Assembly: GCA_018825305.1 (NCBI GenBank)
Contig: JAHJEO010000003.1
Span: 53,931 to 117,930, forward strand
Length of the DNA stretch: 64,000 nt
From: Gammaproteobacteria bacterium
Lineage (GTDB): Bacteria; Pseudomonadota; Gammaproteobacteria; Burkholderiales; Rhodocyclaceae
Reading direction: 5' to 3'
The position numbers and the translations under genes are program-made. Below the pieces are notes generated by a model that had not been told where the DNA came from, did not search any database, and saw only the letters and a list, made by a program, of their open reading frames with translations. Shown piece after piece: positions 12,683-58,547 of the stretch (position 1 is the stretch's first letter; each line of letters starts with the position of its first letter).

Positions 12683-13381
12683 TCATGGTCGCAGGCCGGC
12701 GATCCATCTGGTGTAGATCCGATCCGCCGCCGCGCGCATGGCGGCGATGCGCGTGTCGATGCGCTCGAACATCTGCTCCGGTGTCTGCACCGAGGGGCTG
12801 GGCGCGGCATTTTCCTTGTCCCATACGCGGCACCAGAGGCGGATCATCGCCGCGGTCATCTCGACGTGGCACTGCATGCCGAGATGGGGGCCGATGGCGA
12901 AGGCCTGATTGTCGCAGTGCGCGCTTTTCAGGATGCGCGTTGCACCGGGCGGAACGCTGAAAGTCTCGCCGTGCCAGTGGAAGGCTTCGAAGCGTTCGAT
13001 GTCGCCGAGCCAGTCCTGCGCCATGGGGTCGGTGCTCGTCACTTCACCCCAGCCGAGTTCTTTCACCGGATTCCTGCCGACCGTGCCGCCGAGCGCCTTG
13101 GCGATCAACTGGCCGCCGAGACAGTGGCCGATAACGGGAACATCAACCGCCACGGCCGCGCGAATCAGTGCGAAGGTCGGCGCCAACCAGGGCAGGTCGT
13201 CGTTCACGCTCATCGGTCCGCCCATGAAGCACAGGCCGGAGAATCCATCAAAAGTCGGCGGCGGCGGGACGCCGGCATCGACCGCGAAAAGCGTCCACGG
13301 AATCGAGTGCGCATCGAGGAAAGTGGCAAAATAGCCCGGACCCTCGCCGGAGTTGTGACGAAAGATCGCGACGGGTTTCAT
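12683..13381 (-). CDS. class I glutamine amidotransferase-like protein
   Basis: Nucleophile elbow PVIGHCLGGQLIAKALGG. ATG at 13381 (MKPVAIFRHNSGEGPG...); the TTG at 13408 is less likely. Confidence 0.8.
   Translation of the reverse strand: MKPVAIFRHNSGEGPGYFATFLDAHSIPWTLFAVDAGVPPPPTFDGFSGLCFMGGPMSVNDDLPWLAPTFALIRAAVAVDVPVIGHCLGGQLIAKALGGTVGRNPVKELGWGEVTSTDPMAQDWLGDIERFEAFHWHGETFSVPPGATRILKSAHCDNQAFAIGPHLGMQCHVEMTAAMIRLWCRVWDKENAAPSPSVQTPEQMFERIDTRIAAMRAAADRIYTRWIAGLRP
13250..13272 (+). repeat. 23-nt word, degenerate copy
   Basis: AAAAGTCGGCGgcGGCGGgACGc inside the GATase gene (antisense; encodes PPPPTF). Confidence 0.4.
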
Positions 13382-13401
13382 TGGTAGCGTGGAGTGCGAG
13401 A

Positions 13402-14010
13402 GTGGCAACGCCGGAATTCTATTCCTTGTCGGTGATCGAGTTGCGGCAGCGGCTGGCTTCGCCGGATCCGTTGCCGCACATCCGGGAATCGGGCGCCGCG
13501 GCCAACGGGGTGCTGACGGCAGCGGCGGTATTGGTGCCCATCATCAACCGTCCGAGCGGCCTCACCATCCTGTTGACGCAGCGTACCGCGCACTTGCGCG
13601 ACCATGCCGGCCAGGTCAGCTTTCCCGGCGGGCGTTGCGAGGCGGGCGACGCTGATCCGGTGGCCACGGCGCTGCGCGAGGCGGAGGAAGAAGTCGGCGT
13701 GCTGCCGGCGCAGGTCGAGGTGCTCGGCCGGCTGCCGGAATACTTCACCAGCACGGGCTTCCGCGTCACGCCGGTGGTCGGACTGGTGACCCCGCCGCTT
13801 AACCTCAAACTCGACGATTTCGAGGTGGCCGAGGTGTTCGAGCCGCCGTTGTCCTTCCTGCTCGACCCGGCCAACCATCAGCGCCAGCAGGTCGAGTGGC
13901 AGGGGGCGCTGCGCGAGTTCTGGGCAATGCCTTGGCAGGGCTATTACATTTGGGGCGCGACCGCCGGCATGCTGGTGAGCCTGCATGCCGCGCTGACCAC
14001 AGAGCAATGA
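13402..14010 (+). CDS. nudL: CoA pyrophosphatase (Nudix hydrolase, NudL-like)
   Basis: Nudix box GQVSFPGGRCEAGDADPVATALREAEEEVG. The start is uncertain (TTG 13381, GTG 13402 or GTG 13432); 13402 was chosen by N-terminal similarity to E. coli NudL. Confidence 0.75.
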   Translation: MATPEFYSLSVIELRQRLASPDPLPHIRESGAAANGVLTAAAVLVPIINRPSGLTILLTQRTAHLRDHAGQVSFPGGRCEAGDADPVATALREAEEEVGVLPAQVEVLGRLPEYFTSTGFRVTPVVGLVTPPLNLKLDDFEVAEVFEPPLSFLLDPANHQRQQVEWQGALREFWAMPWQGYYIWGATAGMLVSLHAALTTEQ

Positions 14011-14077
14011 ATGCTGCGCTGCACAATAATCGCTCGAATGTGATATCTTTCGACAGTCGCAGCTGGACGCCAATCCC

Positions 14078-15013
14078 ATGAGCCTTTTCAGCATCATCTT
14101 CGCGTTGGCCATCGAACAGGTGAAACCCCTGTCGGGCGCGCGCGTCGATGCGCTGCTCGCTGCCTACGGCCGCCAGCTGGAGGCATGGTTCAACGCCGGC
14201 GAGCGCCACCACGGCGTCGCCGCATGGTGTGTGGGCGTGGGCGTGCCGACCGCCATCGTGCTGGGGCTGCATGTTGCGCTGGCGCACTTCGCCCCGCCGC
14301 TGGTGCTGGCGCTCAGTGTCGGTGTGCTCTATCTCACCGTCGGCTTTCGCCAGTACAGCCATTTTTTCACCGACATCCACCTGGCCCTGCGCCTGGGTGA
14401 AATCGATCAAGCGCGCGCTCTGTTGGGCGAGTGGCGCGGCGTCAATTCCGACCGCCTGAGTCCGGGCGAGGTCGCGCGTCTGGCGATCGAACAGGCCTTG
14501 CTGCACTCGCACCGCCATGTTTTTGCACCGCTGTTCCTGTTCATGTTGTTCGGGCCGGCCGGCGCGGTGCTCTATCGCCTGTCGCTGGCGTTGTCCCGCC
14601 TCTGGGGTGAGGTCGCTGATGCCGGTGTGGCAGGCACGGCGGCGCCGAAGGAATTCGGACAGTTCGCGCGACAGGCCCAGGCCGTCGTCGACTGGCTGCC
14701 GCAGCGCGCCACCGCCACCGCCTTCGCCGTGGTCGGCGATTTCGAGGATGCCGTCTATTGCTGGCGCACCCAGTCCGAAGTGTGGCCCGACGCAGCGACC
14801 GGCATTCTGCTGGCCAGCGGTGCCGGCGCCCTCGGCGTGAGGCTGGGCATGCCGGTTCAGGCCGGAATGGATGGCGACGACCGTCCGATACTCGGCACCG
14901 GCGACGACGCCGATGTCGATTTCATGCAGAGCACCATCGGCCTGGTTTGGCGAACCCTTGTCCTGGGCATATTGCTGCTTGCCCTGTTCTGGGTGGCCAG
15001 CTGGGTCGGTTGA
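14078..15013 (+). CDS. CobD/CbiB-family (AmpE-like) membrane protein
   Basis: 311-aa polytopic protein whose N-terminus (MSLFSIIFALAIEQVKPL) is typical of the family. No other cobalamin genes are nearby. Confidence 0.6.
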   Translation: MSLFSIIFALAIEQVKPLSGARVDALLAAYGRQLEAWFNAGERHHGVAAWCVGVGVPTAIVLGLHVALAHFAPPLVLALSVGVLYLTVGFRQYSHFFTDIHLALRLGEIDQARALLGEWRGVNSDRLSPGEVARLAIEQALLHSHRHVFAPLFLFMLFGPAGAVLYRLSLALSRLWGEVADAGVAGTAAPKEFGQFARQAQAVVDWLPQRATATAFAVVGDFEDAVYCWRTQSEVWPDAATGILLASGAGALGVRLGMPVQAGMDGDDRPILGTGDDADVDFMQSTIGLVWRTLVLGILLLALFWVASWVG

Positions 15014-15095
15014 CGTGGCTGCCGGCGGCCGCGTGATCCGAGGCCGCCCGCAGCGGAGCACCATTTTTTGGATTTTCAAATAACAGGAGAAGAAA

Positions 15096-16283
15096 ATGGC
15101 TGACAAGAGGGAAGTGGTTGCATTGAGTGCCGTGCGCAGCGCGGTGGGTGCCTTTGGCGGTTCACTGAAGGATATTGAGCCGGCCGAGCTTGGCGGCCTG
15201 GTCATCAAGGAGGCGATCGCCCGCGCCGGCGTCGATCCAGCCGCGGTGACATTCGCCACCGTCGGCAATTGCATTCCGACCGAAGTGCGTTACCCCTACG
15301 TTTCGCGCGTCGCCGCCATCCAGGGCGGCATGTCGATGGACTCGACGGTGTTCGCCGTCAACCGCCTGTGCGGCTCGGCCCAGCAGGCCATAGTCAGCTC
15401 GGCGCAGGCCATCATGCTTGGCGATGCCGACTTCGCCATCGGCGGCGGCGTTGAAGTCATGTCGCGCGGCGCCTACCTGCTGCCGGCGCTGCGTTCCGGC
15501 GCGCGCATGGGCGACACTCAGGCGATCGATGCCATGGTCGCCGCGCTGACCGACCCCTTCGGCGTCGGCCACATGGGCATCACCGCCGAAAACCTGGCGA
15601 CCAAGTGGAACATCTCGCGCGAAGAACAGGACGCCTTCGCCCTCGAATCGCAACAGCGCGCGGCCAAGGCCCAGGCCGCAGGCTACTTCAAGTCGCAGAT
15701 CGCGCCGATCACCATGAAGACCCGCAAGGGCGACGTCGTGTTCGACACCGACGAGCACCTCAAGCCCGCGACCACCATGGAAACTCTGGCCAAGATGCGT
15801 CCGGCCTTCAAGAAGGACGGCACGGTCACCGCCGGCAACGCCTCCGGCATCAATGACGCCGCCGCCTTCCTGGTGCTGGCCGACGCCGCCAAGGCTGCCG
15901 CCGCCGGCCACAAGCCGATCGCCCGCCTGGTCGCCTACGGCATCGCCGGCGTGCCCAACGACGTGATGGGCGAGGGCCCGATTCCGTCGTCCAAGGTCGC
16001 CTTGCAAAAGGCCGGCCTGTCGCTGGACAAGATGGATGTCGTCGAATCCAACGAAGCCTTTGCCGCCCAATCGATCGCGGTGACCAAAGGCCTCGGCCTC
16101 GACCCGGTCAAGACCAACCCGAACGGCGGCGCCATCGCCATCGGCCACCCGGTCGGCGCGACCGGTTCGGTGATCGTGACCAAGCTGCTGCACGAGCTGA
16201 TTCGCGTCAATGGCCGCTACGGCATGGCCACCATGTGCATCGGCGGTGGCCAGGGCATTACCACCATCTGGGAAAGAACCTGA
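15096..16283 (+). CDS. acetyl-CoA C-acetyltransferase (thiolase II)
   Basis: Thiolase motifs VNRLCGSAQQAI, NASGINDAAA and NPNGGAIAIGHPVGATG, with C-terminal CIGGGQG. Confidence 0.92.
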   Translation: MADKREVVALSAVRSAVGAFGGSLKDIEPAELGGLVIKEAIARAGVDPAAVTFATVGNCIPTEVRYPYVSRVAAIQGGMSMDSTVFAVNRLCGSAQQAIVSSAQAIMLGDADFAIGGGVEVMSRGAYLLPALRSGARMGDTQAIDAMVAALTDPFGVGHMGITAENLATKWNISREEQDAFALESQQRAAKAQAAGYFKSQIAPITMKTRKGDVVFDTDEHLKPATTMETLAKMRPAFKKDGTVTAGNASGINDAAAFLVLADAAKAAAAGHKPIARLVAYGIAGVPNDVMGEGPIPSSKVALQKAGLSLDKMDVVESNEAFAAQSIAVTKGLGLDPVKTNPNGGAIAIGHPVGATGSVIVTKLLHELIRVNGRYGMATMCIGGGQGITTIWERT

Positions 16284-16305
16284 GCGTTGGGTAACCACAA
16301 AGAAT

Positions 16306-16334
16306 GCGGCCCCTTGCGGGCCGTTTCTTTTTTT
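16306..16334 (+). terminator. rho-independent terminator after the thiolase gene
   Basis: CGGCCC-cttgc-GGGCCG followed by TTTCTTTTTTT. Confidence 0.8.
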
Positions 16335-16435
16335 GAAGCGTCAACCTGGCAGCGACAGGGGCGTTTTATGCCATAACCCAGCAACGGGTTGATTCACGGC
16401 GTAGCAAAACCAACCTCTTTCGCAAGGATAGACAA

Positions 16436-16669
16436 ATGAACAAGCTCATGACCGCGCTCCTGACTTCCGTTTTTGCAATGGCCGTCAGTTTCAATGCTGC
16501 CGCAGCATCTCCGGCTGCCGCCGCTGCTCCCGCGGCTGCACCGGCCGCCGCCGCGGCTCCTGCTCCTGCTGCTGCGCCTGCCGAAGCGGCCAAGCCCGCT
16601 GAAGCCGCCAAGCCGATGAAGAAAGCCAAGAAAGCCAAGAAGGCCAAGAAGGCGGCTGCGGCTGGCTAA
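16436..16669 (+). CDS. secreted Ala/Pro/Lys-rich low-complexity mini-protein (77 aa)
   Basis: Signal peptide MNKLMTALLTSVFAMAVSFNAAAA, then (A/P)n, AEAAKP x2 and KKAKKAKKAKKAAAAG. It is a monocistronic unit flanked by strong terminators. Confidence 0.55.
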   Translation: MNKLMTALLTSVFAMAVSFNAAAASPAAAAAPAAAPAAAAAPAPAAAPAEAAKPAEAAKPMKKAKKAKKAKKAAAAG

Positions 16670-16700
16670 TCCAGGCAGTTCCGGGGACAACGTCCCCACC

Positions 16701-16733
16701 AAAAAATGCAGGGATGTCCCCTGCATTTTTTTC
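16701..16733. terminator. bidirectional terminator
   Basis: A6-ATGCAGGG-loop-CCCTGCAT-T7. It serves the mini-protein gene (+) and the end of the minus-strand operon. Confidence 0.75.
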
Positions 16734-16788
16734 GTCTGCCGAGCGGGTTCGGTGGCGGCTCGGCCGTTCCTTCTGCGGCACAGCCGGG

Positions 16789-17874
16789 CTAGGTTCCGAG
16801 CTTTTGCGCGAGAATGGCGGCTGCGGCGGCAACGCCATCGACAGCCGGACGCGGCGGGACTGGTGCGGCGATGACCGTCGCCAGCGCATCGGCGAACTGG
16901 CCGCCTGCGACCTGCTCTTGACCGATCTCGGCACAGCGCGCATTGGCGTGCAGCCATTGGATCAGGCAGTCCTGTTCGGGCCAGTCGTCGCGACGTTGGT
17001 AGAGCACCGCCGTGCCGTTGGCAGCCGCTTCTGCGAACGTGCCGTAGCCTGGCTTGGTGAGGACTGCGTCGGCCGAGCGCAGCAGGTCGGCAAAGGGCCA
17101 GCCAAACGTTTCGAGACTGCTTATGTCGGGACGTCGGACGTTCCATGCAGCGGGCACCAGCCAGTGGGTATTCGCCAGCACCGGCCAGGATTCGACCGGC
17201 AGTCGCGTCGGGATGCCGCCAAGCGCCGCCAGCACGATGCGAGCCGTGGCGCCGGCGCCAAGTCTTTCCCTGAGGTCGACACGGCGCTCGCAACCAATGC
17301 CGGCAATTGGGCCGATGGTCAGGACATTGTCCAGCGAAGTCATGGGCATGCCGGGCGTGGTGCGCAGGAAGGTCGCCGAACGATAGGCGGCGAGCATTTC
17401 GGCATGGATGGCAGCGGCCCACTGTTCGCTGCCGAAATAGTGCAGGAACAGGTCGGCCCAGTTGAGCGAGCACATCGCCACTGCGGGAATTCCGATGCGG
17501 CTGGCGCCCGCTAGCGGCACATAGGAAACGTTGGTGAAGACCGCATCGACCCCCAATTCTCGGAGCAGGCGTGCGTCGCGCTCGACCTGCACGGAAAAGT
17601 CGGCGCTGGCGGCACGGTAAGCTGCAGCGGTGGCGGCATGGTCAATGCGCATGGCATCGTGCATGACGTAGCCGAAGTCACTGGCGGCAGCGATCAGGCC
17701 GAAGGCGGGAACGATGCGTTGCCTCAGCCGCTCCGCCGGCAGGCCGCTGCGCAAGGTGAGCCGCAGTCCCGGCAGCAGTTCGGCCAGGCAATTGAGCACC
17801 GGCGCCGTCTGCGCCAGGTGGCCGAAGCCGTGCGAGGAGATGTCGACGAAAAGATGCGGCGGCGAGTGCGCCAT
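16789..17874 (-). CDS. putative GT-B fold glycosyltransferase (MurG/UDP-glycosyltransferase-like)
   Basis: 361 aa starting MAHSPPHLFVDISSHGFGHLAQ, with a C-terminal nucleotide-sugar-binding-like motif VLTKPGYGTFAEAAANGTAVLY. The start overlaps the rsgA stop (TGATG). The 493-aa ORF in the track is over-extended into rsgA. Confidence 0.6.
   Translation of the reverse strand: MAHSPPHLFVDISSHGFGHLAQTAPVLNCLAELLPGLRLTLRSGLPAERLRQRIVPAFGLIAAASDFGYVMHDAMRIDHAATAAAYRAASADFSVQVERDARLLRELGVDAVFTNVSYVPLAGASRIGIPAVAMCSLNWADLFLHYFGSEQWAAAIHAEMLAAYRSATFLRTTPGMPMTSLDNVLTIGPIAGIGCERRVDLRERLGAGATARIVLAALGGIPTRLPVESWPVLANTHWLVPAAWNVRRPDISSLETFGWPFADLLRSADAVLTKPGYGTFAEAAANGTAVLYQRRDDWPEQDCLIQWLHANARCAEIGQEQVAGGQFADALATVIAAPVPPRPAVDGVAAAAAILAQKLGT
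17595..17617 (+). repeat. 23-nt word AAAAGTCGGCGCTGGCGGCACGG, canonical copy
   Basis: Exact consensus inside the glycosyltransferase gene. The coding strand reads RAASADF. Confidence 0.9.
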
Positions 17875-19363: not shown

Positions 19364-20608
19364 TCAGGCGGACTTCAGGTGGGCGATGCGCTGGCTGGCG
19401 GGCGGGTGCGAGTCGTAGAAAAGCGAATGCAGCGGGTCCGGCGTCAGCGTGGCGGCGTTGTCGCGATAGAGCTTGACCAGCGCGCTGATGAGATCGCCGC
19501 TACCGGCCTGCTGCGAGGCGTAGGCATCGGCCTCGAATTCGTGGCGCCGCGACAGCCACGACATCAGTGGTGCGACGGGAAAAGTGAATACCGGCAGCAA
19601 CAGCGAGAACAGGATCAGTGCCATCGCCGTCCCGCCAGCGCCGACATTTACTCCGGCGTAGAACCAGGGTTGGTCGATGAGCTGGCCGAGCAGCCAGAGG
19701 AAAGCCAGCGACAGCGCGGCCATCATGGCGATGCGCTTCCAGACGTGGCGATGCTTGAAGTGGCCGAGTTCGTGGGCCAGCACCGCTTCGACCTCTGCCG
19801 GGGCGAGTTTTTCAAGCAGGGTGTCGAAGAAGACGATGCGCTTGGCCCGGCCGAAGCCGGTGAAGTAGGCATTGCCGTGGGCCGAACGCTTCGAGCCGTC
19901 CATCACGAACAGCCCTGAGCTGGCGAAGCCGCAGCGCGCCAGCAGCGCTTCGATGCGGCTCTTCATTTCGCCGTCGGCGAGCGGCGAGAACTTGTTGAAC
20001 AGCGGTGCGATTAAGGTCGGGTAGAGCAGCAGCACCAGCAGATTGAAGCCCAGCCATGTCGTCCAGACGTAGAGCCACCACCGCGAACCCATCGCGCCCA
20101 TCAGCCACAGCACGGCCAGCAGCAGGGGGGCGCCGATCAGCACGGTGAGCAGCACTTGCTTCAGCAGGTCGCCGAGATAGAGCGCCGGCGTCATCTTGTT
20201 GAAGCCGAAGCGCGCTTCAAGCGAGAACGTCCGATAGAGCGAAAACGGCAGGCCGACCAGGAAGCCGGCAATGCCGACGCTGGCGAACAGGGCCAGGCCG
20301 TGGGCGTAGCCGGCAGCGTCGAACATGCCGCGCCAGAGCTGGTCGAAGGCCGTAAGCAGGCCGCCGAAGGTGAAGGCGAGCAGCAAGGCCGCATCGACGA
20401 CGAGTTCGACCAGGGCCAGCCGCGTCTTGGCGCTTGTGTAGTCGGCGGCCTTGCGGTGCTCATCAGGTGTGATGCGATCGGCGAACTCGGCCGGCACGGC
20501 ATCGCGGCGAACCTGGACATGGCGCAACTGCCGCAGCGCCAGCCAGGCGCGCAGCGCGGTGGTGAGGGCCAGCATCGACAGGAATATGAGGGAAAACGTG
20601 TGGGCCAC
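19364..20608 (-). CDS. M48-family (Ste24/HtpX-like) zinc metalloprotease
   Basis: HELGHFKHRH zinc motif and multiple TM helices. The start is set at GTG 20608, giving about 414 aa; the ORF extension to 20785 would overlap orn. Confidence 0.8.
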   Translation of the reverse strand: MAHTFSLIFLSMLALTTALRAWLALRQLRHVQVRRDAVPAEFADRITPDEHRKAADYTSAKTRLALVELVVDAALLLAFTFGGLLTAFDQLWRGMFDAAGYAHGLALFASVGIAGFLVGLPFSLYRTFSLEARFGFNKMTPALYLGDLLKQVLLTVLIGAPLLLAVLWLMGAMGSRWWLYVWTTWLGFNLLVLLLYPTLIAPLFNKFSPLADGEMKSRIEALLARCGFASSGLFVMDGSKRSAHGNAYFTGFGRAKRIVFFDTLLEKLAPAEVEAVLAHELGHFKHRHVWKRIAMMAALSLAFLWLLGQLIDQPWFYAGVNVGAGGTAMALILFSLLLPVFTFPVAPLMSWLSRRHEFEADAYASQQAGSGDLISALVKLYRDNAATLTPDPLHSLFYDSHPPASQRIAHLKSA

Positions 20609-26149: not shown

Positions 26150-27805
26150 ATGGATAAGGTCTGGTTGCAGAGTTATCCGGCGGGAATTCCCGCCGAAGTG
26201 GATCTCGACGAGTTCAAGTCTCTCGTCGACCTGTTCGACAAGAGCGTGGCGACTTTCGGGGCGCACACCGCATTCATCAGCATGGGCAAGAGCATCACCT
26301 ATGCCGAGCTCGACCGCTTGTCACGAGACTTCGCCGCCTACCTGCAATCCGAGCTGAAGCTGGCTGCGGGGGCGCGCGTGGCGCTGATGATGCCCAACGT
26401 CATGCAGTACCCGGTGTGCCTCTTCGGCGCGCTGCGCGGCGGCTACACCGTGGTGAACTGCAACCCGCTGTACACGGCACGCGAACTTGAATACCAGCTG
26501 GCCGATTCCGGCGCCGAGGCCGTGGTGATCCTCGAGAATTTCGCCCATGCCCTGCAGGCGGCGTTGCCGGGGACCGCGGTGCGCCATGTGGTCACCACCC
26601 GGCTGGGCGACATGCTGGGTGCAGCCAAGGGCACGCTGGTGAATTTCGTCGTCAAGCACGTCAAGAAGATGGTGCCGGCCTGGAGCATTCCCGACGCCGT
26701 GCCGTGGGCAAAGGCGATGGCGCGAGGGGCCGGGGTAGAGTTCAAGCCGCAGCCGCTGGGCCACGACAACATTGCTTTCCTGCAATACACGGGTGGCACC
26801 ACGGGTGTTTCCAAGGGCGCGATCCTCTCCCACCGCAACATGATCGCCAACATGCAGCAAGCGCATGCCTGGCTGCGCAGCACGGTGAATGAGGGCGAGG
26901 AAACCATCATCACGGCGCTGCCGCTGTATCACATCTTTGCCCTGACGGTGAGCCTCGTCTTCACCAAACTCGGCGCCAGCAACGTGCTGATCACCAACCC
27001 CCGCGACATCCCGGGTTTCGTCAAGGAACTGGGCAAGCATCGCTACACGGTGATCACCGGCGTCAATACCCTGTTCAACGCCCTGCTCAACAATCCACAG
27101 TTCGGCAAGCTCGATTTTTCGCCGCTCAAGGTCAGTCTGGGCGGCGGCATGGCGGTGCAGCGGGCCGTTGCCGATCGCTGGAAGCAGGTCACCGGAGTCA
27201 CCCTGATCGAGGCCTACGGCCTGACCGAAACGGCGCCGGCAGTGACCATCAATCCGCTCGACCTGCCGGAATACAACGGTGCCATCGGCCTGCCCCTGCC
27301 CTCGACGGAAGTGGCGATCCGCAACGACGATGGCCGCGACGTGCCGCTCGGCGAGGCCGGCGAACTCTGTGTGCGCGGGCCGCAGGTCACCAGCGGCTAC
27401 TGGCAGCGGCCGGACGAAACCACCCAGGTGCTGATGGCCGACGGTTTCCTGCGCACCGGCGATGTCGCGGTGATGGATGAAAAGGGCTATGTGCGCATCG
27501 TCGATCGCAAGAAGGACATGATCCTGGTGTCGGGTTTCAACGTCTATCCCAACGAGGTCGAGGCCGTTGTTGCCATGCATCCAGGCGTACTCGAAGCGGC
27601 GGCGGTTGGCGTACCCGACGAGCACTCCGGCGAGGCAGTCAAGCTGTTCGTGGTGAAACGCTCCCCCGACCTGACCGCCGAGGCACTGATCGCCCACTGC
27701 CGCGAGAGCCTGACCGGCTACAAGATTCCGCATCAGGTCGAGTTCCGCGACGAACTGCCGAAGACCAACGTCGGCAAGATCCTGCGCCGGGCACTGCGCG
27801 AGTAG
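26150..27805 (+). CDS. fadD: long-chain fatty acid-CoA ligase (AMP-binding family)
   Basis: AMP-binding motifs [24 protein letters not shown] and TGDV...DRKKDMI. GGAGG RBS. Confidence 0.88.
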
Positions 27806-27826: not shown

Positions 27827-27849
27827 AAAAGTCGGCGCTGGCGGGACGG
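27827..27849 (+). repeat. 23-nt word, near-canonical copy
   Basis: AAAAGTCGGCGCTGGCGGgACGG, intergenic between convergent fadD and the GGDEF-EAL gene. Confidence 0.85.
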
Positions 27850-27871
27850 CAGGGGAGGGCGGGCGGCGCCC

Positions 27872-30589
27872 TTAGCGGCTATTGCCCAGCAGCCACGCCT
27901 CGAACTCGGCGCGCGGCATCGGCCTGGCGAAGTGATAGCCCTGCAGGTAATCGACGCCCATCGCCCTCAGTTTGCTGGCAGTGGCCTCGTCCTCGACCCC
28001 CTCGGCGATGGTTTCCAGCCCGAGGGCCTTGGCCAGATGGATGATGGCCTGGGTCATCGACTGGCCCGCGGGTTCGTGCAGGCGGCGAACGAAGGAAATG
28101 TCGATCTTGAGTTCGCTCACCGGCATTTCGTGCAATTGCGATAGCGCCGAATAGCCGGTGCCGAAGTCGTCGATGGCGATGTGAAAGCCGATGTGTTGCA
28201 GGTCCTCAAGGCGCTCGGAGGCGTTGGCGACATCGAGCAGAGCGATGCTCTCGGTCACCTCGAGCACGATGTCCGATGGTTCGAGGCCGGCCTGGGCCAA
28301 CACGCTGACCAGTTGATCGATGGCGTACGCCGAGAACAGCTGGCGCTTCGAGATATTAATCGCCAGCCGCAATGTTTGGCCGCGCGCGCGCCACTCGACC
28401 AGCGCCTGCAATGCCTGCTCCCATATCTGGTGGCCGAGCTCACTGATGATGCCGGTGCTCTCGGCGATGGGAATGAATGTGGCGGGGCCGACCCAGCCGA
28501 ACTCGGCGTCGTGCCAGCGCGCCAGCACCTCGGCGACCTGGCATTCGCCGTTTCCGGCGCTGACGATAGGCTGGAACCAGGCCTGGATGCGCCGGGAATG
28601 GACCGCCTCGACCAGCTTGTTCTGGATGTAGAGCTCGCGCCTGCCGCCGCCCTTGTCGGATACCTCGCCGAAGAAGCAGGTCTGGTTGCGCCCCTGGGTT
28701 TTGGCGTAGAACATGGCGCGGTCGGCATGGGTCAGCAGGCTTTCCACCTCCTGTGCGTCAGCCGGATACATTGCCACGCCCATGCTGAATGTCACCGTGT
28801 ATTCGCCATCCTCGATCTTGAACGGAGATTGCAGTGCCTCGGCAATCTTGCGCGTGACCTCGCGGGCATCCTCTTCGTTGTTCAGTCCCGGCAGCAGCAG
28901 CACGAATTCGTCGCCGCCCCAGCGCGCCAGGGTGTCGCCGGCCCGCAACTGCCGGCGCAACATGCTGGCGAAAGAAACCAGCAGCCGGTCGCCGGCCTTG
29001 TGGCCGAGGCTGTCGTTGATCTTCTTGAAGTGATCGAGATCGATGAAGCAGACGGCGACCTGATGCTCGTCCCTGCTGGCCATTCGAATGGCGATCTTGA
29101 TGCGATCTTCAAGCAGCACGCGGTTGGGCAAGTCGGTCAGGGCATCGTGCAACGCCATGTGCGTGATTTGTTGCTCATGCAGGCAGGTCTGGGTGACGTC
29201 GCGCATCACCCCGCGGATTCCCGTGAGCTTGGCCCCGGAGTCGAATTGGGCGATCAGCCGGCATTCCACCCACTGTTCGCCACCCGAGTGGCCGAGCAGG
29301 CGCAGGCGAACATTCGCCTGCAGCTTGTCGCCGGTCCGGAAGGCCGCGCATATGCGCTCCATGGCATCGGCGTCATCACCGTGGATGAAACGGGCGATGG
29401 GCTGGCCCGCCGCCGATTCGTCGCTACGCGTCAGGCGATTCCAGCCGGGGCTGGCGCGCACTATCCTGGCCGTAGCGTCGAGCTCGAGCACGGCTTCGTC
29501 GAGCATGGCCAGGGTATCGAGATAGGCGCGCTGCTCGCGATCGCGTTCCTCGATGCGTTGCATCAGCGTTTCCAGCGTAGTGGCGACGTCGCCGATCTCG
29601 TCGTTGCCGCTGCTGGCCGGTGCGAGCAGCGGCACGGCTGTGGCCGAGGAACTGCCGCCGGCGAACGACAGCGCGGCTGCGTCCAGCGACTCGATGCGGC
29701 GCACCGAGCGAGACAGCCAGCGGCCAAGACCGGCCCAGAGCATCAGCAGGATCATGGCGATGGCCGCAATCGGCCGCAGCATGAATTCGAGCGCCGGAAC
29801 GCTGTCGATGAAGTCGCGCTGCACCACCAGGGTCGGCGCCAGCGGACCGGGATGAGGCCACGGCAGATGCGTCTGGATCACGCGGCGTTCCCCCACCAGG
29901 ATCAGGCCTTCGCGCGCCGGCTCGATCACTTGTGGCGACCCGGACTGGGAACGCGCAAGGATGCCCGATGTTCCCTGCAGCAGGAGATGGACCTCGGGGA
30001 TCAACGCGGCCCTGAGCATCGAGGTGTTCATCGGCCGGAACAGCAACAGCGACCCCTGGCCGGCCTGTCCCAGCCACAAGGGCGTCGATAGCAGCCGGAA
30101 GAGTTCGCGGTGATCCGCGCTGTAGTACCAGCCGCCGCTGACGGTGTCGGCGACCAAATTGAGGTTGATGGCCTCCGAACCGAAGCGGAACAGGACATCG
30201 CCTGCCGGCGACAGGATCACGAGACTGGAAAAGTCGCCGGATGCCCACTGGGCGGTGAGAAACGTGGTCAACGCGGCCCAGCGAACGGATTCCGGCCCTT
30301 CCAGTATTCGCGTGAATTCGATACGGCGACGGGTTTGCTCTGCCTGGGTCTGCCAGGCGGCCTCCAACTGAGGCAGGGTCTCGATATAGTGGTGGCGCGC
30401 GAGCTGCTGCTTTTGTTCGATTTCGTGCCGTTGCCGCGTTACGTAAGCGTTGAAGCCGACAACTGGAATGCCGACGGTGATGACCGCCATGAAAACAAGC
30501 AGGCGGCGTACGGCTTGCCAGCGCATGGTGATTCGACGTCCCGGCGGAGGGGGGCGGGACGCCGCGGATGCTTTCGGGGCGGCACTCAT
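27872..30589 (-). CDS. membrane sensor with periplasmic domain, PAS, GGDEF and EAL domains
   Basis: N-terminal TM, a roughly 250-aa periplasmic region and a second TM, then PAS, RWGGDEF and an EAL domain (LEVTES...DDFGTGYS). The ATG at 30589 overlaps the stop of the upstream binding-protein gene (ATGA). Confidence 0.9.
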   Translation of the reverse strand: MSAAPKASAASRPPPPGRRITMRWQAVRRLLVFMAVITVGIPVVGFNAYVTRQRHEIEQKQQLARHHYIETLPQLEAAWQTQAEQTRRRIEFTRILEGPESVRWAALTTFLTAQWASGDFSSLVILSPAGDVLFRFGSEAINLNLVADTVSGGWYYSADHRELFRLLSTPLWLGQAGQGSLLLFRPMNTSMLRAALIPEVHLLLQGTSGILARSQSGSPQVIEPAREGLILVGERRVIQTHLPWPHPGPLAPTLVVQRDFIDSVPALEFMLRPIAAIAMILLMLWAGLGRWLSRSVRRIESLDAAALSFAGGSSSATAVPLLAPASSGNDEIGDVATTLETLMQRIEERDREQRAYLDTLAMLDEAVLELDATARIVRASPGWNRLTRSDESAAGQPIARFIHGDDADAMERICAAFRTGDKLQANVRLRLLGHSGGEQWVECRLIAQFDSGAKLTGIRGVMRDVTQTCLHEQQITHMALHDALTDLPNRVLLEDRIKIAIRMASRDEHQVAVCFIDLDHFKKINDSLGHKAGDRLLVSFASMLRRQLRAGDTLARWGGDEFVLLLPGLNNEEDAREVTRKIAEALQSPFKIEDGEYTVTFSMGVAMYPADAQEVESLLTHADRAMFYAKTQGRNQTCFFGEVSDKGGGRRELYIQNKLVEAVHSRRIQAWFQPIVSAGNGECQVAEVLARWHDAEFGWVGPATFIPIAESTGIISELGHQIWEQALQALVEWRARGQTLRLAINISKRQLFSAYAIDQLVSVLAQAGLEPSDIVLEVTESIALLDVANASERLEDLQHIGFHIAIDDFGTGYSALSQLHEMPVSELKIDISFVRRLHEPAGQSMTQAIIHLAKALGLETIAEGVEDEATASKLRAMGVDYLQGYHFARPMPRAEFEAWLLGNSR

Positions 30590-35177: not shown

Positions 35178-36584
35178 ATGCCTAAGACGCTTTACGACAA
35201 GCTTTGGGAGAACCATGTCGTCCGCAGCGAAGCGGACGGCACGGCGCTGCTCTACATCGATCGCCACCTGGTGCACGAAGTCACCAGCCCCCAGGCCTTC
35301 GAGGGTCTCAAGCTCGCCGGGCGCAAGCCGTGGCGGGTATCAAGCATCGTCGCCACCGCCGACCACAACACGCCCACCGACCACTGGGAGCGCGGCATCG
35401 AGGATCCCGTGTCGCGGCAGCAGGTCGAGACACTCGACGCCAACATCCGCGAGGTCGGTGCGCTGGCCTTCTTTCCGTTCAAGGACGCGCGCCAGGGCAT
35501 CGTCCATGTCATCGGCCCGGAGAACGGCGCGACGCTGCCCGGCATGACCGTGGTTTGCGGCGACTCGCACACCTCGACCCACGGCGCCTTCGCCTGCCTT
35601 GCACATGGCATCGGCACCTCGGAGGTCGAGCACGTGCTGGCGACGCAGTGCCTGTTGCAGAAGAAGATGAAGGCGATGCTGGTCCGCATCGACGGAAAAG
35701 TCGGCGCTGGCGTGACGGCGAAGGACATCGTGCTGGCGCTGATAGGCAAGATCGGCACCGCCGGCGGCACCGGCTACGCCATCGAGTTCGGCGGCGCAGC
35801 GATTCGCGCCCTGTCGATGGAAGGGCGCATGACGGTCTGCAACATGGCGATCGAGGCCGGCGCGCGCGTTGGCTTCGTCGCGGTCGACGACACCACGATC
35901 AGCTACCTCAGGGGCCGCCCCTTTGCGCCCGCCGGCGAGGTCTGGGACCGTGCCGTCACCCACTGGCGCACGCTGGTGTCCGACCCCGGCGCACATTTTG
36001 ACGCGGTGGTGGAACTCGATGCCGCGCAGATCCAGCCACAAGTCACCTGGGGTACTTCGCCCGAAATGGTCGCCGGCATCGGCGACGCCGTGCCGGCGCC
36101 CGAGGATTTCGCCGATCCGGTCAAGCGCGAGGGCGTCGCCCGCGCGTTGCAGTACATGGGCCTGACCCCGCGCACGCCCCTCGCTGAAATCAAGGTCGAC
36201 AAAGTCTTCATCGGTTCCTGCACCAACTCGCGCATCGAGGATCTGCGCGAGGCCGCTGCGGTGGCGAAGGGCCGGCGCAAGGCCGACAACGTGATGCAGG
36301 TGCTGGTGGTGCCGGGGTCAGGCCTGGTCAAGCGCCAGGCCGAAGCCGAAGGGCTGGACAAGGTGTTTGTCGCCGCCGGTTTCGAATGGCGGGAGCCCGG
36401 TTGCTCCATGTGCCTGGCGATGAACGCCGACCGCCTGGAACCGGGCGAGCGCTGCGCCTCGACTTCCAATCGAAATTTCGAAGGTCGCCAGGGCAACGGC
36501 GGCCGCACCCACCTGGTCAGTCCGGCAATGGCGGCAGCGGCTGCCATCGCCGGCCACTTCGCCGATGTTCGCGAAATCATTTAA
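35178..36584 (+). CDS. leuC: 3-isopropylmalate dehydratase large subunit
   Basis: [15 protein letters not shown]...[13 protein letters not shown]...[11 protein letters not shown]. Confidence 0.97.
35696..35718 (+). repeat. 23-nt word, near-canonical copy
   Basis: AAAAGTCGGCGCTGGCGtgACGG inside leuC (sense; encodes GKVGAGVT). Confidence 0.85.
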
Positions 36585-42531: not shown

Positions 42532-43161
42532 GTGACGGGTTCCATCATCCATTCCCGTTCAGTGACATTCCATCCGGCTGTCTGGATCGCGGGTTGGGCG
42601 GTGATCGCCCTGTTCCTGCAAGGTATCGAATTGCGCTGGCTCGCCGTGCTGGCAGCGCCGACTTTTTTCCTGGTGTCCGTTTTCGCTGCCGGCGACGCAC
42701 TGCGCCTGGCCAGGCGTGCCCGCTGGTTATTGCTTGCCATTGCCGTCCTGTTCATCGTTTCCACTCCTGGCGAGCGCCTGCCGGGGATCGCTGGCTCATT
42801 TGGTCTGACAAGCGACGGGTTTTCCCTCGCCGCCGAGCATGTTTTGCGCCTGCTGTTGCTGCTGACCACCCTGGCCTGGCTGCTCAAAGGATTGCGCAAC
42901 GAGGGATTGCTTGCCGGATTGCATTGCCTTACGCGACCGTTCGGCGCGGCCCGCGACCGTCTCGTTGTGCGCTTGTTGCTGGCGCTAGAGTACGCGGAAC
43001 ATGAAAACGATTCCGGAAACTGGCGCGCCTGGCTCGGCAGCGACGGTAGCAACGATGGTGAACGCAGCCACGTTCGACTGGAACTTGGACGCTTGCACCT
43101 TGCCGATCGCATCGCCCTGGCGACCTGCGGCGCGGTAGCCTTGCTGGCGGTGCTGAAATGA
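42532..43161 (+). CDS. hypothetical polytopic membrane protein (209 aa)
   Basis: 4-5 predicted TM helices and a faint CbiQ/EcfT-like flavour only. GTG start. The stop overlaps the truA ATG (ATGA). Confidence 0.45.
   Translation: MTGSIIHSRSVTFHPAVWIAGWAVIALFLQGIELRWLAVLAAPTFFLVSVFAAGDALRLARRARWLLLAIAVLFIVSTPGERLPGIAGSFGLTSDGFSLAAEHVLRLLLLLTTLAWLLKGLRNEGLLAGLHCLTRPFGAARDRLVVRLLLALEYAEHENDSGNWRAWLGSDGSNDGERSHVRLELGRLHLADRIALATCGAVALLAVLK
42644..42666 (-). repeat. 23-nt word, degenerate copy
   Basis: Plus strand reads CCGTGCtGgCAGCGCCGACTTTT, in the 209-aa membrane ORF (encodes AVLAAPTFF, a third reading register). Confidence 0.55.
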
Positions 43162-47459: not shown

Positions 47460-47472
47460 TGGATTGGACGCT

Positions 47473-47690
47473 TGCCGGGTCTCGCCCCGGCGGGCGAGGT
47501 ACTTTCTTGCTGCGCGGCAAGAAAGTACCCAAAGAAACGCGCCCCGCTACCCCGGCCCTACGGGCTTCCCTCGCTCCGTGCCATCAGTCCGGCCGGCCGC
47601 TAAACTCGCCTACGGCTCAGACAACGCGGCCGGACATCCCCGGACTGACGCCCCTCCACTCGGCGGGGCAGAGGGGACGGAAAACCGTCA
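47473..47690 (+). repeat. about 215-bp structured repeat, copy A (left arm of inverted pair)
   Basis: Roughly 90% identical by eye to the reverse complement of 49282..49492, with 1-2 indels. Contains hairpins CTCGCCC-cggc-GGGCGAG and GGTACTTTCTTGC-tgcgcg-GCAAGAAAGTACC. The similarity also shows as near-identical spurious peptides in ORFs 47456..47860 (+) and 49168..50157 / 49287..49493 (-). Confidence 0.85.
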
Positions 47691-47708
47691 CCAGCCCAAT
47701 GTCCGTCG

Positions 47709-47731
47709 CCGTGTCGCCAGCGCCGACTTTT
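47709..47731 (-). repeat. 23-nt word, near-canonical copy
   Basis: Plus strand reads CCGTGtCGCCAGCGCCGACTTTT. Non-coding, just inside the inner edge of repeat copy A. Confidence 0.85.
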
Positions 47732-47911
47732 TCAAGCGGCGGCTTGCGGCCAGAAACGGACCTTCGGACCTTCGCCCGAAAGCGGCCACTTGCCTTGGAA
47801 ATAATCCACATCTGTCCGGCATATTGGAGTTGTTATACTGACCGCCAGAACTACAAGTGACTGAAAGTCATGAACAAAGAACAGCGAAACCCGCGTCATC
47901 AATATCAATTG

Positions 47912-47937
47912 TTATACGGACCCCAGGGTCCGTGTAA
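47912..47937. promoter_or_regulatory. palindromic operator candidate upstream of brnT
   Basis: TTAtACGGACCC-ca-GGGTCCGTgTAA (11 of 12 positions pair per arm), about 65 nt upstream of the brnT ATG in AT-rich DNA. Confidence 0.45.
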
Positions 47938-48001
47938 ACACTGTTGAGGCCATCCATATCACCGTATGGCTTTTTGTATGGGCTAGTGCTACTCTGTGTC
48001 C

Positions 48002-48286
48002 ATGGCTAAAACTCGCTTTGATTGGGACCCAGACAAGGACGCCGAGAATCAGAGAAAGCACGGGGCCTCCTTCTCCCGTGCCCAGTACGCCTTTGCGGAC
48101 CCGCAACGCGTGATAGCCAAGGACGAGGCACACAGCCAAACCGAAGAACGGTTCTATTGCTTCGGCGAAGTTGACGGCGGTGTGCTCACGGTGCGGTTCA
48201 CTTACCGCGCTTCGGTTATTCGAATCATCGGGGCCGGTTATTGGCGAAAAGGAAAGGCGATCTATGAGCGCGAAAACGCAGCGTAG
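48002..48286 (+). CDS. brnT: BrnT-family (DUF497) type II toxin
   Basis: MAKTRFDWDPDKDAENQRKHGASFSRAQYAFADP...RIIGAGYWRKG matches the FxWDxxKxxxNxxKHG signature. Confidence 0.85.
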   Translation: MAKTRFDWDPDKDAENQRKHGASFSRAQYAFADPQRVIAKDEAHSQTEERFYCFGEVDGGVLTVRFTYRASVIRIIGAGYWRKGKAIYERENAA

Positions 48287-49530: not shown

Positions 49531-50835
49531 GTGACCGCACAACCCGACAACCTTCCCGGTTGGCTTGCCTATATCGAGCGCCAGCACGCCCAGCCGATCG
49601 CGCTGGGCCTCGACCGGGTGCGCGAAGTCAGCCGCCGCCTGGGTCAACGCCAGACTTGCCCGCTCATCCTCGTTGGCGGCACCAACGGCAAGGGCTCGAC
49701 CTGCGCCATGCTTGAGCGCATCCTGCTTTGCGCCGGCTACCGGGTCGGCCTCTACACCTCGCCGCATTTGCTCGCATACAACGAGCGCGTCCGCATCGAT
49801 GGCGTGGCTGTCGAAGATGCGCCGCTGCGTGCCGGTTTCGCCCGTGTCGAGGCTGCCAGAATCGACGGCAACGATGTACCGCTGACCTATTTCGAATTCG
49901 GCACGCTGGCAGCGTGGGAGGTGTTCGCGGCGCAGGCTTTGGATGTCGTCATCCTCGAAGTCGGTCTCGGCGGCCGCCTCGACGCCACCAACATCTATGA
50001 GCCGGATGTCGCCATCGTCACCAGCGTCGACATGGATCACATGGACTACCTCGGCGCCACGCGCGAGGCCATCGGTTTCGAAAAAGCCGGGATATTCCGC
50101 GCCGGCCGGCCGGCCATCTGCGGCGATGCCGATCCGCCGGCCAGCCTGGTGGAACATTGCCGTACCGCCGGCGCCGACTTTTTGCAGATCGGCCGCGACT
50201 TCGGCTACGTGCGGCAGGAGGGCCAGTGGCAGTACTGGGGCTCGGGCGGAAAGCGTTCCGGCCTGGCGTTTCCGGCCTTGCGCGGCGCGGTGCAGTTGGG
50301 CAACGCGGCCTGCGTGCTGGCTGCGCTCGATACGCTACGCGAGAAACTGCCGGTGGCGATGCAGGAGGTCCGCCGCGGCTTGCTCGAAGTCGAACTGCCC
50401 GGGCGCTTCCAGGTGCTGCCGGGGCAACCGACGCTGGTGCTCGACGTCGCCCACAACCCGCAGGCGGCGCGCGTGCTGGCGGACAGCCTCGGCGGCATGG
50501 CCTTCCACCCCGTCACCTGGGCCGTGTTCGGCATGCTGGCGGACAAGGACATTCCCGCCGTGATCGAGGCGATCAAGCACCGCGTCGATGTCTGGCTGCC
50601 CTGCACGCTCGAAGGCACCCGTGCCGCCAGCGCCGACTTTCTGGCGCAGGCGCTGGAGGCTTCCGGCTGCAAGGTCGGCGGCCGTTTCGCAACGCCGGCG
50701 GAAGCCCTCCGGGAAGCGCAGGCCCGGGCGAATGAAGATGATAGAATCCTCGCCTTCGGATCTTTCCTGACGGTTGCCGAGGTTCTGCGCGCACGAGCCC
50801 CAAAGCGAATGGCGAATGGCGAAAATTTCGACTGA
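49531..50835 (+). CDS. folC: bifunctional folylpolyglutamate synthase / dihydrofolate synthase
   Basis: GTG start; LILVGGTNGKGSTCAML P-loop; 434 aa. Confidence 0.93.
   Translation: MTAQPDNLPGWLAYIERQHAQPIALGLDRVREVSRRLGQRQTCPLILVGGTNGKGSTCAMLERILLCAGYRVGLYTSPHLLAYNERVRIDGVAVEDAPLRAGFARVEAARIDGNDVPLTYFEFGTLAAWEVFAAQALDVVILEVGLGGRLDATNIYEPDVAIVTSVDMDHMDYLGATREAIGFEKAGIFRAGRPAICGDADPPASLVEHCRTAGADFLQIGRDFGYVRQEGQWQYWGSGGKRSGLAFPALRGAVQLGNAACVLAALDTLREKLPVAMQEVRRGLLEVELPGRFQVLPGQPTLVLDVAHNPQAARVLADSLGGMAFHPVTWAVFGMLADKDIPAVIEAIKHRVDVWLPCTLEGTRAASADFLAQALEASGCKVGGRFATPAEALREAQARANEDDRILAFGSFLTVAEVLRARAPKRMANGENFD
50160..50182 (-). repeat. 23-nt word, degenerate copy
   Basis: Plus strand reads CCGTaCCGCCgGCGCCGACTTTT, in folC (encodes RTAGADF). 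Confidence 0.55.
50619..50641 (-). repeat. 23-nt word, near-canonical copy
   Basis: Plus strand reads CCGTGCCGCCAGCGCCGACTTTc, in folC (encodes RAASADF). Confidence 0.85.
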
Positions 50836-53749: not shown

Positions 53750-53759
53750 GGAGACAGCG

Positions 53760-54941: not shown

Positions 54942-55061
54942 GTCGGGAAGTCGCGTCTGTAGTCTGGACGAACTGCTACTGCGACGATGGCGAGTGCGTT
55001 GGCGATTTGCGCGAAAGGGTGACGCTCGTCGTCAGCGGCGGCGTGGTGACGATCGGCTGAT

Positions 55062-55586: not shown

Positions 55587-55625
55587 GGGGTTCTCCTTCG
55601 TGACAGGACGAAACGGCGACAGTGT

Positions 55626-57533
<1,908 letters not shown>

Positions 57534-57539
57534 TGACGG

Positions 57540-57779
57540 CTATTCTTCAGTGTCGGGTTTGCTCAGGGTGACGATGCCCCTGAGTCGCGTCGTGGCGATG
57601 GCGTGCAGCACGATGCCGCAGCCGACGAAAAACACGATCGAAGCCATCAGGCTGGCCTGGATGGCGTCGTACTCGCCCTTCACGGGATACATGTATGCGC
57701 CGATGGCGCAGCCGAGGCCGGCGATGTAGCAAAGCACGGCGAATGTCATCGAGATTTTCTGGCCGAAGGTCTTGTCCAT
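57540..57779 (-). CDS. hypothetical small membrane protein (79 aa)
   Basis: Two TM helices. It ends 6 nt upstream of the recQ start. Confidence 0.5.
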   Translation of the reverse strand: MDKTFGQKISMTFAVLCYIAGLGCAIGAYMYPVKGEYDAIQASLMASIVFFVGCGIVLHAIATTRLRGIVTLSKPDTEE

Positions 57780-57824
57780 GGCGAGGTAGGTCCGGGGTAG
57801 GTGTGGCGACGGCGAACTGGCCGT

Positions 57825-58547
57825 TCAGGAAAAGGCAATGGCGCGACAGCCGCCGACATCGCAGGCGAGGTAGCCGCCCTGGTCTTGGGTCCATTCCGGC
57901 AGTACCCAGCGTTCGCCGGGGCGGCCGTCAATGTCCAGTGCGTGCCGGGCCGGGCGGTGGGTATGGCCGTGGATCATGCGGCTGACTTCGTGGCAGCGGA
58001 ACGCGGCGGTGACGGACGATGCGGCCACGTCCATTATTTCGTAGGCCTTGCCCTGCTTCTCGCGCTCGCTGTTGGCGCGCAGCTGTTCGATGTGGGCGCG
58101 GCGCTCGGTCAGCGGCAGCGCAAGGAAGTCCCGCTGCCAGCGCTCTGAGCGCACCATGGCCCGAAAGCGTTGGTAATCCGCGTCGTCGGTGCAAAGCGTA
58201 TCGCCGTGGAGCAACAGAGTCCGGCTGCCGGCGACATCGACGACGACTTCGTCAGCCAGCCGCCGTGCTCCGGTCGCGGCGCAGAAAGCGGGACCGGCGA
58301 GGAAGTCGCGGTTGCCCGGCAGGAAGAATATCGCCGTGCCGCCAGCGCCGACTTTTTCTATTGCGCTACAAATCCGGGCATTGAAGGGGGCGGCGAGGTC
58401 ATCGTCGCCGGCCCAGTAATCGAAGACGTCGCCGAGCAGGTAGAGCGCCGCCGCCTGCCGTGCCGGGCCTTCGAGAAAGCGCTCGAACAAATGCAATGTG
58501 CCCGGACGGGCCGGGCACAGGTGCAGGTCGGATGCGAACAGAATCAA
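57825..58547 (-). CDS. lpxH: UDP-2,3-diacylglucosamine diphosphatase
   Basis: MILFASDLHL...LLGDVFDYW...GNRDFL...HGDTLCTDD...IHGHTHRP, the calcineurin-like LpxH motifs. Confidence 0.93.
   Translation of the reverse strand: MILFASDLHLCPARPGTLHLFERFLEGPARQAAALYLLGDVFDYWAGDDDLAAPFNARICSAIEKVGAGGTAIFFLPGNRDFLAGPAFCAATGARRLADEVVVDVAGSRTLLLHGDTLCTDDADYQRFRAMVRSERWQRDFLALPLTERRAHIEQLRANSEREKQGKAYEIMDVAASSVTAAFRCHEVSRMIHGHTHRPARHALDIDGRPGERWVLPEWTQDQGGYLACDVGGCRAIAFS
58334..58356 (-). repeat. 23-nt word, canonical copy
   Basis: Plus strand reads CCGTGCCGCCAGCGCCGACTTTT, in lpxH (antisense to the motif; the protein reads EKVGAGGTA). Confidence 0.9.

Follow-up and report, generated by a model that had tools for sequence, protein, structure and literature searches.

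A 25-nucleotide genomic word shared among Rhodocyclaceae is a candidate DNA uptake sequence

Why does one short DNA word recur inside unrelated genes, in several reading frames, and between genes of a single bacterial contig? The question is raised by a 64,000-nucleotide (nt) stretch of contig JAHJEO010000003.1 (positions 53,931 to 117,930, forward strand) from the Rhodocyclaceae assembly GCA_018825305.1, hereafter the window, which carries a GC-rich word of 25 nt on both strands. A first-pass annotation of this stretch had proposed an undescribed uptake-signal-like sequence or some other genomic word recognized by a protein, and the placement, turnover, phage and taxonomic tests reported here lend sequence-level support to that proposal. 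By analogy with known systems, the reading that we favour on balance, with a confidence slightly better than even, is that the word serves as a lineage-specific DNA uptake, or self-recognition, sequence of a Rhodocyclaceae clade. It would then be a functional analogue of the DNA uptake sequence (DUS) of Neisseriaceae and the uptake signal sequence (USS) of Pasteurellaceae, the only two families, both host-associated, in which sequence-specific DNA uptake is known so far. A 2025 survey treats DUS and USS as the class, with the same frame bias and permissive placement that are described below (bioRxiv 10.1101/2025.10.24.684340). Our full-text search of the literature found no description of the word, nor of uptake sequences in Rhodocyclaceae, Sulfuritalea or Accumulibacter.

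The nine copies of a 23-nt word that were first reported are all present, six of them with zero to two mismatches (17595+, 27827+, 35696+, 47709-, 50619- and 58334-) and three at 13250+ (four mismatches), 42644- (two) and 50160- (two). That list was incomplete, as further copies lie at 12195- (three mismatches), 19627- (two), 9349- (four) and 34+ (five), and the word, though real, had been given too short a length. Counted on both strands, 10 copies have at most three mismatches to the 23-mer and 14 have at most five. A position-weight matrix finds 13 sites at or above 14 bits, all of which reach at least 20 bits; the scores fall into two groups, separated by an empty interval from about 12 to 20 bits. 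The density is about 0.15–0.2 per kb, or about one copy per 5 kb, and the commonest 12-mers and 14-mers of the window come from the word. The window has a GC content of 64%, and its composition does not generate such sites: there were no matches to the 23-mer in 100 dinucleotide shuffles, and twenty simulations from a 5th-order Markov model that had been trained on this same stretch gave 0.0 sites of at least 14 bits per run. We also used a codon-aware control in which 45 window genes were shuffled 200 times without altering protein sequence or codon usage. The real genes contain seven sites of at least 20 bits, whereas the shuffles average 1.24 and never exceed four, and this control is conservative because the peptides themselves have been shaped by the word. 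The excess over chance that had been claimed is thus upheld under all three null models.

Aligning 208 copies from the window and related loci shows a word of 25 nt with sharp edges on both sides, the 25 flanking bases on either side being at background. In a logo built from the 127 copies that did not serve as search seeds, the consensus is A-AAAGTCGGCGCTGGCG-(G/A)-N-ACGGC-(G/A), or AAAAGTCGGCGCTGGCGGGACGGCG when written out in full, and carries about 33.6 bits. The word is asymmetric. Positions T6, C7, G8 and G9 and positions A20, C21 and G22 are near-invariant, while positions 18–19 are nearly free, also in intergenic copies, in which positions 25–26 vary as well. Such low information at positions 18–19 fits read-out by a protein better than copying off one template. 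The mismatch spectrum of the copies is continuous from 0 to 7. With a GC content of 76%, the word can be parsed as an A-tract (AAAA) followed by three tandem heptads, GTCGGCG, CTGGCGG and GACGGCG. Positions 11–18 of each copy form GCTGGCGG (for example 17605–17612 in the window), one base away from the Escherichia coli Chi sequence, GCTGGTGG. We found no dyad symmetry in the word, and single-stranded folding of either strand is no better than that of shuffles (z of -1.1 and +0.7), as is that of three window copies with their flanks. A scan of the window and eight word-rich loci at Rfam gathering thresholds returned a single tRNA and no family for the word. Flanking sequences are random and no insertions or deletions accompany the copies, which derive neither from one duplicated segment nor from a mobile insertion.

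The word has no preferred direction. Among 251 sites in the window and its relatives, 126 are on the plus and 125 on the minus strand, 49% are co-oriented with the local GC skew (p=0.85), and 79 are sense and 67 antisense to transcription (p=0.36). The cumulative skew rises all along the window, which has five plus and eight minus copies. Chi, KOPS and AIMS-type polar words are also over-represented genomic words read by DNA-processing proteins, and the word contains GCTGGCGG; those words are 5–8 nt long and strongly co-oriented with replication, whereas this one has 25 nt and no polarity. Because strand, skew and transcription polarity are all lacking, Chi- and KOPS-type explanations are removed, in line with the distinction drawn in the first-pass annotation.

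All six reading frames are used, unequally (42, 28, 25, 23, 16 and 12 copies; chi-square p=4e-4). The commonest reading is the Gly/Ala/Val/Thr frame KVGAGGT, and the Arg/Trp-rich frames are the rarest. At least about 58% of the copies are within open reading frames (ORFs). By one crude GC3-based gene caller, applied alike to sites and random positions, 42% of the sites are outside confident ORFs (intergenic or unclear) compared with 30% of random positions, about a 1.4-fold enrichment (p=1.5e-4). Copies outside confident ORFs are also nearer to the consensus, with 1.4 mismatches on average against 2.1. The use of six frames and the intergenic copies bear out the view that the word acts at the level of DNA and is not a protein motif, and the window proteins that contain it, once assigned to families, are unrelated to one another. 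LeuC illustrates how the word accommodates a protein. As had been noted, its copy is within a conserved block without any indel, which a gap-free alignment to isopropylmalate isomerases in the PDB confirms; the word spans a variable tripeptide plus the conserved V-T-A-K, and position 18 is a T, off consensus exactly where the Val codon must stay.

Species-representative genomes were scanned for the first 18 bases of the word, giving at least 116 stretches from at least about 62 assemblies, as counted by accession prefix. Among the matches listed, nearly all are Rhodocyclaceae, with the labels Sulfuritalea, Sulfurisoma, Propionivibrio, Rugosibacter, ‘Methyloversatilis’, Azonexaceae, Rhodocyclaceae and Betaproteobacteria. 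The absence of the word from close relatives had been named as a finding that would speak against it, and it is present in at least about 60 species among these matches. The tail ACGGC, which was not part of the search seed, is present in nearly all listed loci; a single Acidobacteriota match among them is without the tail and was rejected as chance. Related loci totalling 834 kb contain 238 sites, with 0.146 further sites per kb beyond the seeding site, which extrapolates to roughly 500–800 copies per genome. The 3.05-Mb chromosome OW818671.1 has listed matches at 0.09, 1.17, 2.35 and 2.54 Mb. Searches of PLSDB plasmids (7.3 Gb) and of INPHARED cultured phages (2.3 Gb) gave partial matches at chance level only. 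Perfect copies were also seen on contigs assigned to Methylococcaceae, Thiobacillus and Burkholderiaceae bins (loci L096, L012 and L051), and these contigs may be mis-binned, judging by the word that they carry.

Comparison of orthologous sites shows that copies come and go. Where the window can be compared with loci L048 or L062, one of five positions is shared. The copy in the M48 peptidase gene is kept in L048, with 29 of 30 bases identical (the word plus TGG) compared with 64% in the flanks. In pheT, L113 and L002 carry the word, read as E-C/R-R-S/P-A-S-A-D-F, while L058 has a sequence of the type E-P-V-A-P-E-F-A-G at the same place; only 12 of 26 bases are identical to L058 at the word site against about 78–80% in the flanks, and the length is unchanged. 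The pheT comparison therefore indicates that the word arises by in-place substitution overriding a conserved peptide, and not by insertion.

The word is also found in mobile DNA. Its 17-mer occurs in 91 stretches of IMG/VR, compared with 12 for a reversed control word, and these copies are full-length; some of the contigs have a GC content of only 46–58%. Bona fide phage contigs are among them, including L157 with head protease and tape measure genes and L170 with DNA polymerase and primase genes. In Pasteurellaceae, USS build up in temperate phages to densities as high as those of the host, and profiling for USS identifies the family's phages in IMG/VR (PMC6776037); the word follows the same pattern. 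In compact elements the word is found beside attC sites, directly upstream of a ribosome-binding site (RBS) and ATG in either orientation, or in the terminal tails of ORFs. An RBS/start or ORF-end context applies to 14% of the copies in viral DNA and to 2% of those in hosts. On phage contigs the word often abuts the RBS and start codon, as in the opposite-strand arrangement ...GCCGACTTTT-GAGGA-N-ATG, or occupies the first or last codons of ORFs; examples are at L135:154, L188:1247, L201:3417, L145:11980 and L163:1962.

Some of the contigs classed as viral carry integron cassettes. In L127 (IMG/VR 3300009945_000063; 629–2123 and 3489–4058), a 316-nt cassette recurs 4.7 times with 91% identity, every unit having a canonical attC (GCCTAACG...GTTAGGC) and one copy of the word, and a nearby ORF matches only the first ~58 residues of an integron integrase. 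From the repeats, the attC sites and this intI fragment it follows that this ‘viral’ contig is an integron whose intI is degenerate and whose duplicated cassettes have no genes. Further cassette arrays, rich in orphan DNA methyltransferases and with the word beside attC, are found in L200 (860–2400), L120, L124, L180 and L131. Judging by the extrahelical T/G bases, the ORFs of L200 appear to be on the attC bottom strand, inverted with respect to the usual cassette orientation. The idea that the word is part of attC or belongs to every cassette was rejected, as only about one-third of cassettes have it (two copies for seven attC sites in L180, three for eight in L124), and the word itself lacks attC structure, that is the imperfect palindrome R''-L''...L'-R' with RYYYAAC and GTTRRRY cores. 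Adjacency to attC or an RBS applies to 11–14% of the copies in viral DNA and to 2% of those in hosts, and only 2% of host copies are adjacent to TAAC; the infrequency of attC adjacency suggests that it reflects where non-coding room exists. Two home-made attC detectors were either too strict or unspecific in GC-rich DNA (0.16 versus 0.19 per kb), and they served only as a guide when the sequences were read.

Copy excess, equal orientation, placement in many frames and at permissive sites without insertion, sharing across a family and accumulation in phages are all features of the uptake class. We infer that DNA uptake is the selective agent and that a pilus-associated receptor reads the word. 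In the mechanism that we propose, a surface-exposed component of the type IV pilus or competence machinery would bind double-stranded DNA carrying A-AAAGTCGGCGCTGGCG-R-N-ACGGC-R, and fragments bearing the word would be taken up preferentially. After RecA-mediated recombination the word would replace near-matches in the recipient, and molecular drive would let it accumulate at any place where the encoded protein permits, including in resident prophages and integron cassettes. The information content fits this reading: the logo holds about 34 bits where about 13.5 bits would be enough to locate that many sites in one genome, and the word is some 20 bits above this need, which is what one would expect of a tag used to discriminate against foreign DNA. 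Such a surplus would make sense in sediments and groundwater, where the pool of foreign GC-rich DNA to be discriminated against is very large.

The USS of Pasteurellaceae is the closest match in form. The Hin-type USS, with its AAGTGCGGT core and AT-rich flanking segments (~29–32 bp in all), is comparable in total length and also asymmetric, and USS likewise number in the hundreds on both strands, use all frames with a bias, are enriched at permissive and intergenic places, are family-wide and accumulate in temperate phages (PMC6776037). Both USS and the word open with an A-run followed by AGT..CGG, by our own comparison, which is probably coincidence. In contrast, the sequences are unrelated: the word is GC-rich and informative over its full length, whereas USS have a 9-bp core with weak flanks, and USS occur at ~0.8 per kb, several-fold above the density of the word. 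The host family is one of environmental Betaproteobacteria, and its receptor is putative, while ComN is the predicted receptor of USS. The DUS (12-mer AT-GCCGTCTGAA and its dialects, with the minor pilin ComP as receptor) shares a betaproteobacterial host with the word and is similarly over-represented, non-polar, coding and non-coding, clade-wide and constrained by the protein where it is coding. It differs in having 12 nt instead of 25 and a CTG core that the word lacks. On neither strand does the consensus contain a DUS core (..CTG.., GCCGTCTGAA dialects) or a USS core (AAGTGCGGT / ACAAGCGGT). The word thus belongs to neither the DUS nor the USS sequence family and, if functional, is an independent analogue.

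Several observations weigh against an uptake sequence. The word is about twice the length of DUS or of the USS core and about five times less dense. We found no uptake, transformation or competence data for these genera in the literature, and fimV is the only pilus or competence gene visible in the window, with no dedicated search for such genes. Unlike many DUS and USS, the word forms no inverted pairs of the terminator type: there are no close inverted-repeat pairs among the 251 host sites, the nearest opposite-strand pairs are 120–160 nt apart, and two window copies merely adjoin terminator-like hairpins. Such pairs are common in the uptake-sequence class and do not define it. The only cultured isolate among the matches listed, Sulfurisoma sediminicola BSN1 (L016), has degenerate copies only in 8 kb (35, 28 and 24 bits). 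Since the loci were ascertained through an exact 18-mer, conservation among the seeded loci is inflated. Finally, the density on some phage contigs is host-like or higher (seven copies in 13.4 kb of L193, four in 13.6 kb of L170), which positive selection for a protective self-tag would also explain.

If the word is an uptake sequence, it would be the third such word to have evolved independently, in free-living Betaproteobacteria of groundwater, sediment and wastewater, and self-biased transformation would not be peculiar to mucosal commensals. Gene flow in complex environmental communities would be gated by a barcode, and with its 25 nt and about 34 bits the word would provide a new system in which to look for a DNA receptor and to test the molecular-drive model. 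Irrespective of function, the word can already be used to assign contigs to the clade, to check the binning of metagenome-assembled genomes and to link phages and integron cassettes to the clade.

Among the alternatives, it is possible, though unlikely, that the word is a self-DNA tag read by a machine other than the uptake apparatus, such as a nuclease of recombination, repair or defence by which word-bearing DNA is spared or processed, or a system for packaging or transfer, so that host DNA, phages and cassettes are selected to carry it. The phage contigs with host-like density point this way, with the word squeezed into the few permissive places upstream of an RBS and ATG or in N- and C-terminal tails, as do cassettes and phages of 46–58% GC that still hold a word of 76% GC, and the presence of GCTGGCGG, one base from Chi. 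Chi-type end-processing nucleases require the strand polarity that the word does not have, however, and outside the word the skew of GCTGGCGG does not exceed that of 8-mers matched for G-C excess (65% versus 64%). No precedent for a protective tag of 25 nt is known to us, and the USS precedent already explains accumulation in phages. With an equally small likelihood, the word could represent a new class of genome-wide ‘self’ mark that is not an uptake signal, in which the A-tract and three heptads are read by an unknown lineage-specific reader that gates the persistence or recombination of DNA; the chromosomes, temperate phages and integron cassettes of the clade would then all have to carry it.

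We regard as improbable a selfish or templated sequence spread by biased gene conversion, short templated repair or reverse transcription that overwrites partly similar sequence. The gain in pheT, where some 14 of 26 bases were exchanged together without an indel or any change to the flanks, is what such copying would produce, and the sharp edges of the word and the gap between about 12 and 20 bits in the window scores agree with it. Variation at positions 18–19 and 25–26 in intergenic copies argues instead that no single template is copied, and all-against-all BLAST of the 116 listed loci found small orthologous pairs only and no master or template locus common to them. There is no structured RNA or Rfam family, and a mismatch spectrum that is continuous from 0 to 7 is as expected in mutation-drive balance. 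REP, BIME and MITE repeats and the cyanobacterial HIP1 are, like the word, highly iterated, short and lineage-specific. REP and MITE elements, however, form hairpins, lie between genes and are inserted together with flanks or target-site duplications, whereas the word has neither dyad nor insertion signature and overwrites coding sequence; HIP1 is palindromic, 8 bp long and linked to methylases.

It seems very improbable that the copies form an array bound by a nucleoid-associated, segregation or chromosome-organization protein, with a structural role for each site. A high-information logo that is bipartite with a weak 2-nt spacer would suit such sites, as would the spread of matches over chromosome OW818671.1 and the somewhat more even than random spacing of the window copies (coefficient of variation 0.63, P=0.06). 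Sites with structural roles would not be expected to turn over so rapidly, with four of five comparable positions unshared, to carry some 20 bits beyond the need of one genome, or to be present in phages and integron cassettes. The known sites parS, matS, SBS, NBS and KOPS are palindromic, regional or polar, and the word is none of these.

There is little room for the word as a target of an Ssn-family site-specific single-strand nuclease, analogous to the NTS/SRM repeats of Neisseria that modulate transformation. Ssn-related motifs (SRM) are words of about 30 nt with hundreds of copies in diverse bacteria, targeted by GIY-YIG nucleases that act on transforming single-stranded DNA and linked to the control of transformation (PMC11893778), and three tandem heptads would suit single-strand read-out. 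These motifs are, however, hairpin palindromes clustered in intergenic DNA around genes, while the word is non-palindromic without a hairpin, mostly genic and dispersed; no GIY-YIG gene was seen among those window ORFs that were scanned, which were not all of them. That the pattern arose by chance, from a protein motif in common or through duplication of one segment is refuted by the zero counts in shuffles and Markov models, the six frames and intergenic copies, the random flanks, the unrelated host proteins and the range of at least about 60 species, even if codon bias and Gly/Ala-rich peptides contribute a little (the ~1.2 sites of at least 20 bits that synonymous shuffles regenerate).

The genes identified in the window are those for H+-pyrophosphatase, argG, yajQ, an M48 peptidase, rsgA, leuC, fimV, truA, accD, folC, purF, recQ, an lpxH-like gene and ppiB, and several of them hold copies of the word, given here with 25-nt coordinates. 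In the KVGAG(V/G)T register, which had been read correctly for leuC and the lpxH-like gene, sense copies are found in leuC (aconitase family by Pfam; 35696..35720, plus strand, 39.4 bits), in the Pfam-supported M48 (HtpX/Ste24-type) peptidase gene (19625..19649, minus, 38.3 bits, peptide VNVGAGGTAM) and, as a perfect copy, in the LpxH-like calcineurin-type phosphoesterase gene (57825–58547, minus; Pfam Metallophos; copy at 58332..58356, minus, 41.9 bits). The reading (R)AASADF or TAGADF likewise holds in folC (Pfam Mur_ligase), which has two antisense copies, at 50158..50182 (minus, 37.6 bits, peptide ..RTAGADF..) and 50617..50641 (minus, 29.1 bits, peptide ..RAASADF..). The third register, A(A/V)P..PTF, was also borne out. 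It is used by antisense copies in the CbiQ-like membrane ORF 42532–43161 (plus; Pfam CbiQ; copy at 42642..42666, minus, 32.8 bits), in the class-I glutamine amidotransferase gene 12683–13408 (minus; Pfam GATase; copy at 13250..13274, plus, 28.1 bits) and in the signal-peptide codons of the small cytochrome c'-like ORF 9317–9763 (plus; copy at 9347..9371, minus, 27.7 bits), a gene call with a weak Cytochrom_C_2 match.

The remaining copies are outside identified genes. One copy has a perfect 23-mer (17595..17619, plus, 38.9 bits), and the glycosyltransferase to which it had been assigned was not confirmed, as the local ORFs have no Pfam match. Another is downstream of accD in the ORF 47464–47841 (plus), which has no family match, and is probably non-coding (47707..47731, minus, 40.4 bits). 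These two are among the best copies in the window, and each is within a region of long ORFs without a Pfam family (16300–17870 and 47460–48170). Two intergenic copies separate convergent genes: 27827..27851 (plus, 41.7 bits), between an AMP-binding enzyme gene that ends at 27805 and a GGDEF/EAL gene that ends at 27872, and 12193..12217 (minus, 33.1 bits), between the YajQ/DUF520 gene (11580–12074, plus) and the ORF 12254–12637 (minus). A degenerate copy, GAAACTCGGCGCCGGCGACACGCCG, is found at 34..58 (plus, 22.4 bits, five mismatches), just upstream of the H+-pyrophosphatase ORF 97–2229 (Pfam H_PPase). A weak relative with five mismatches at 17244..17266 (minus), below the 14-bit threshold and not among the 13 sites, is possibly a decayed or nascent copy.

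The small secreted cytochrome c'-like gene at 9317–9763 is located between an upstream gene and argG and takes up about 435 nt that the syntenic locus L062 lacks. Directly after the two copies between convergent genes there are short GC-rich hairpins at 27856–27872 and 12172–12187, which are probably terminators that the word adjoins but does not form.

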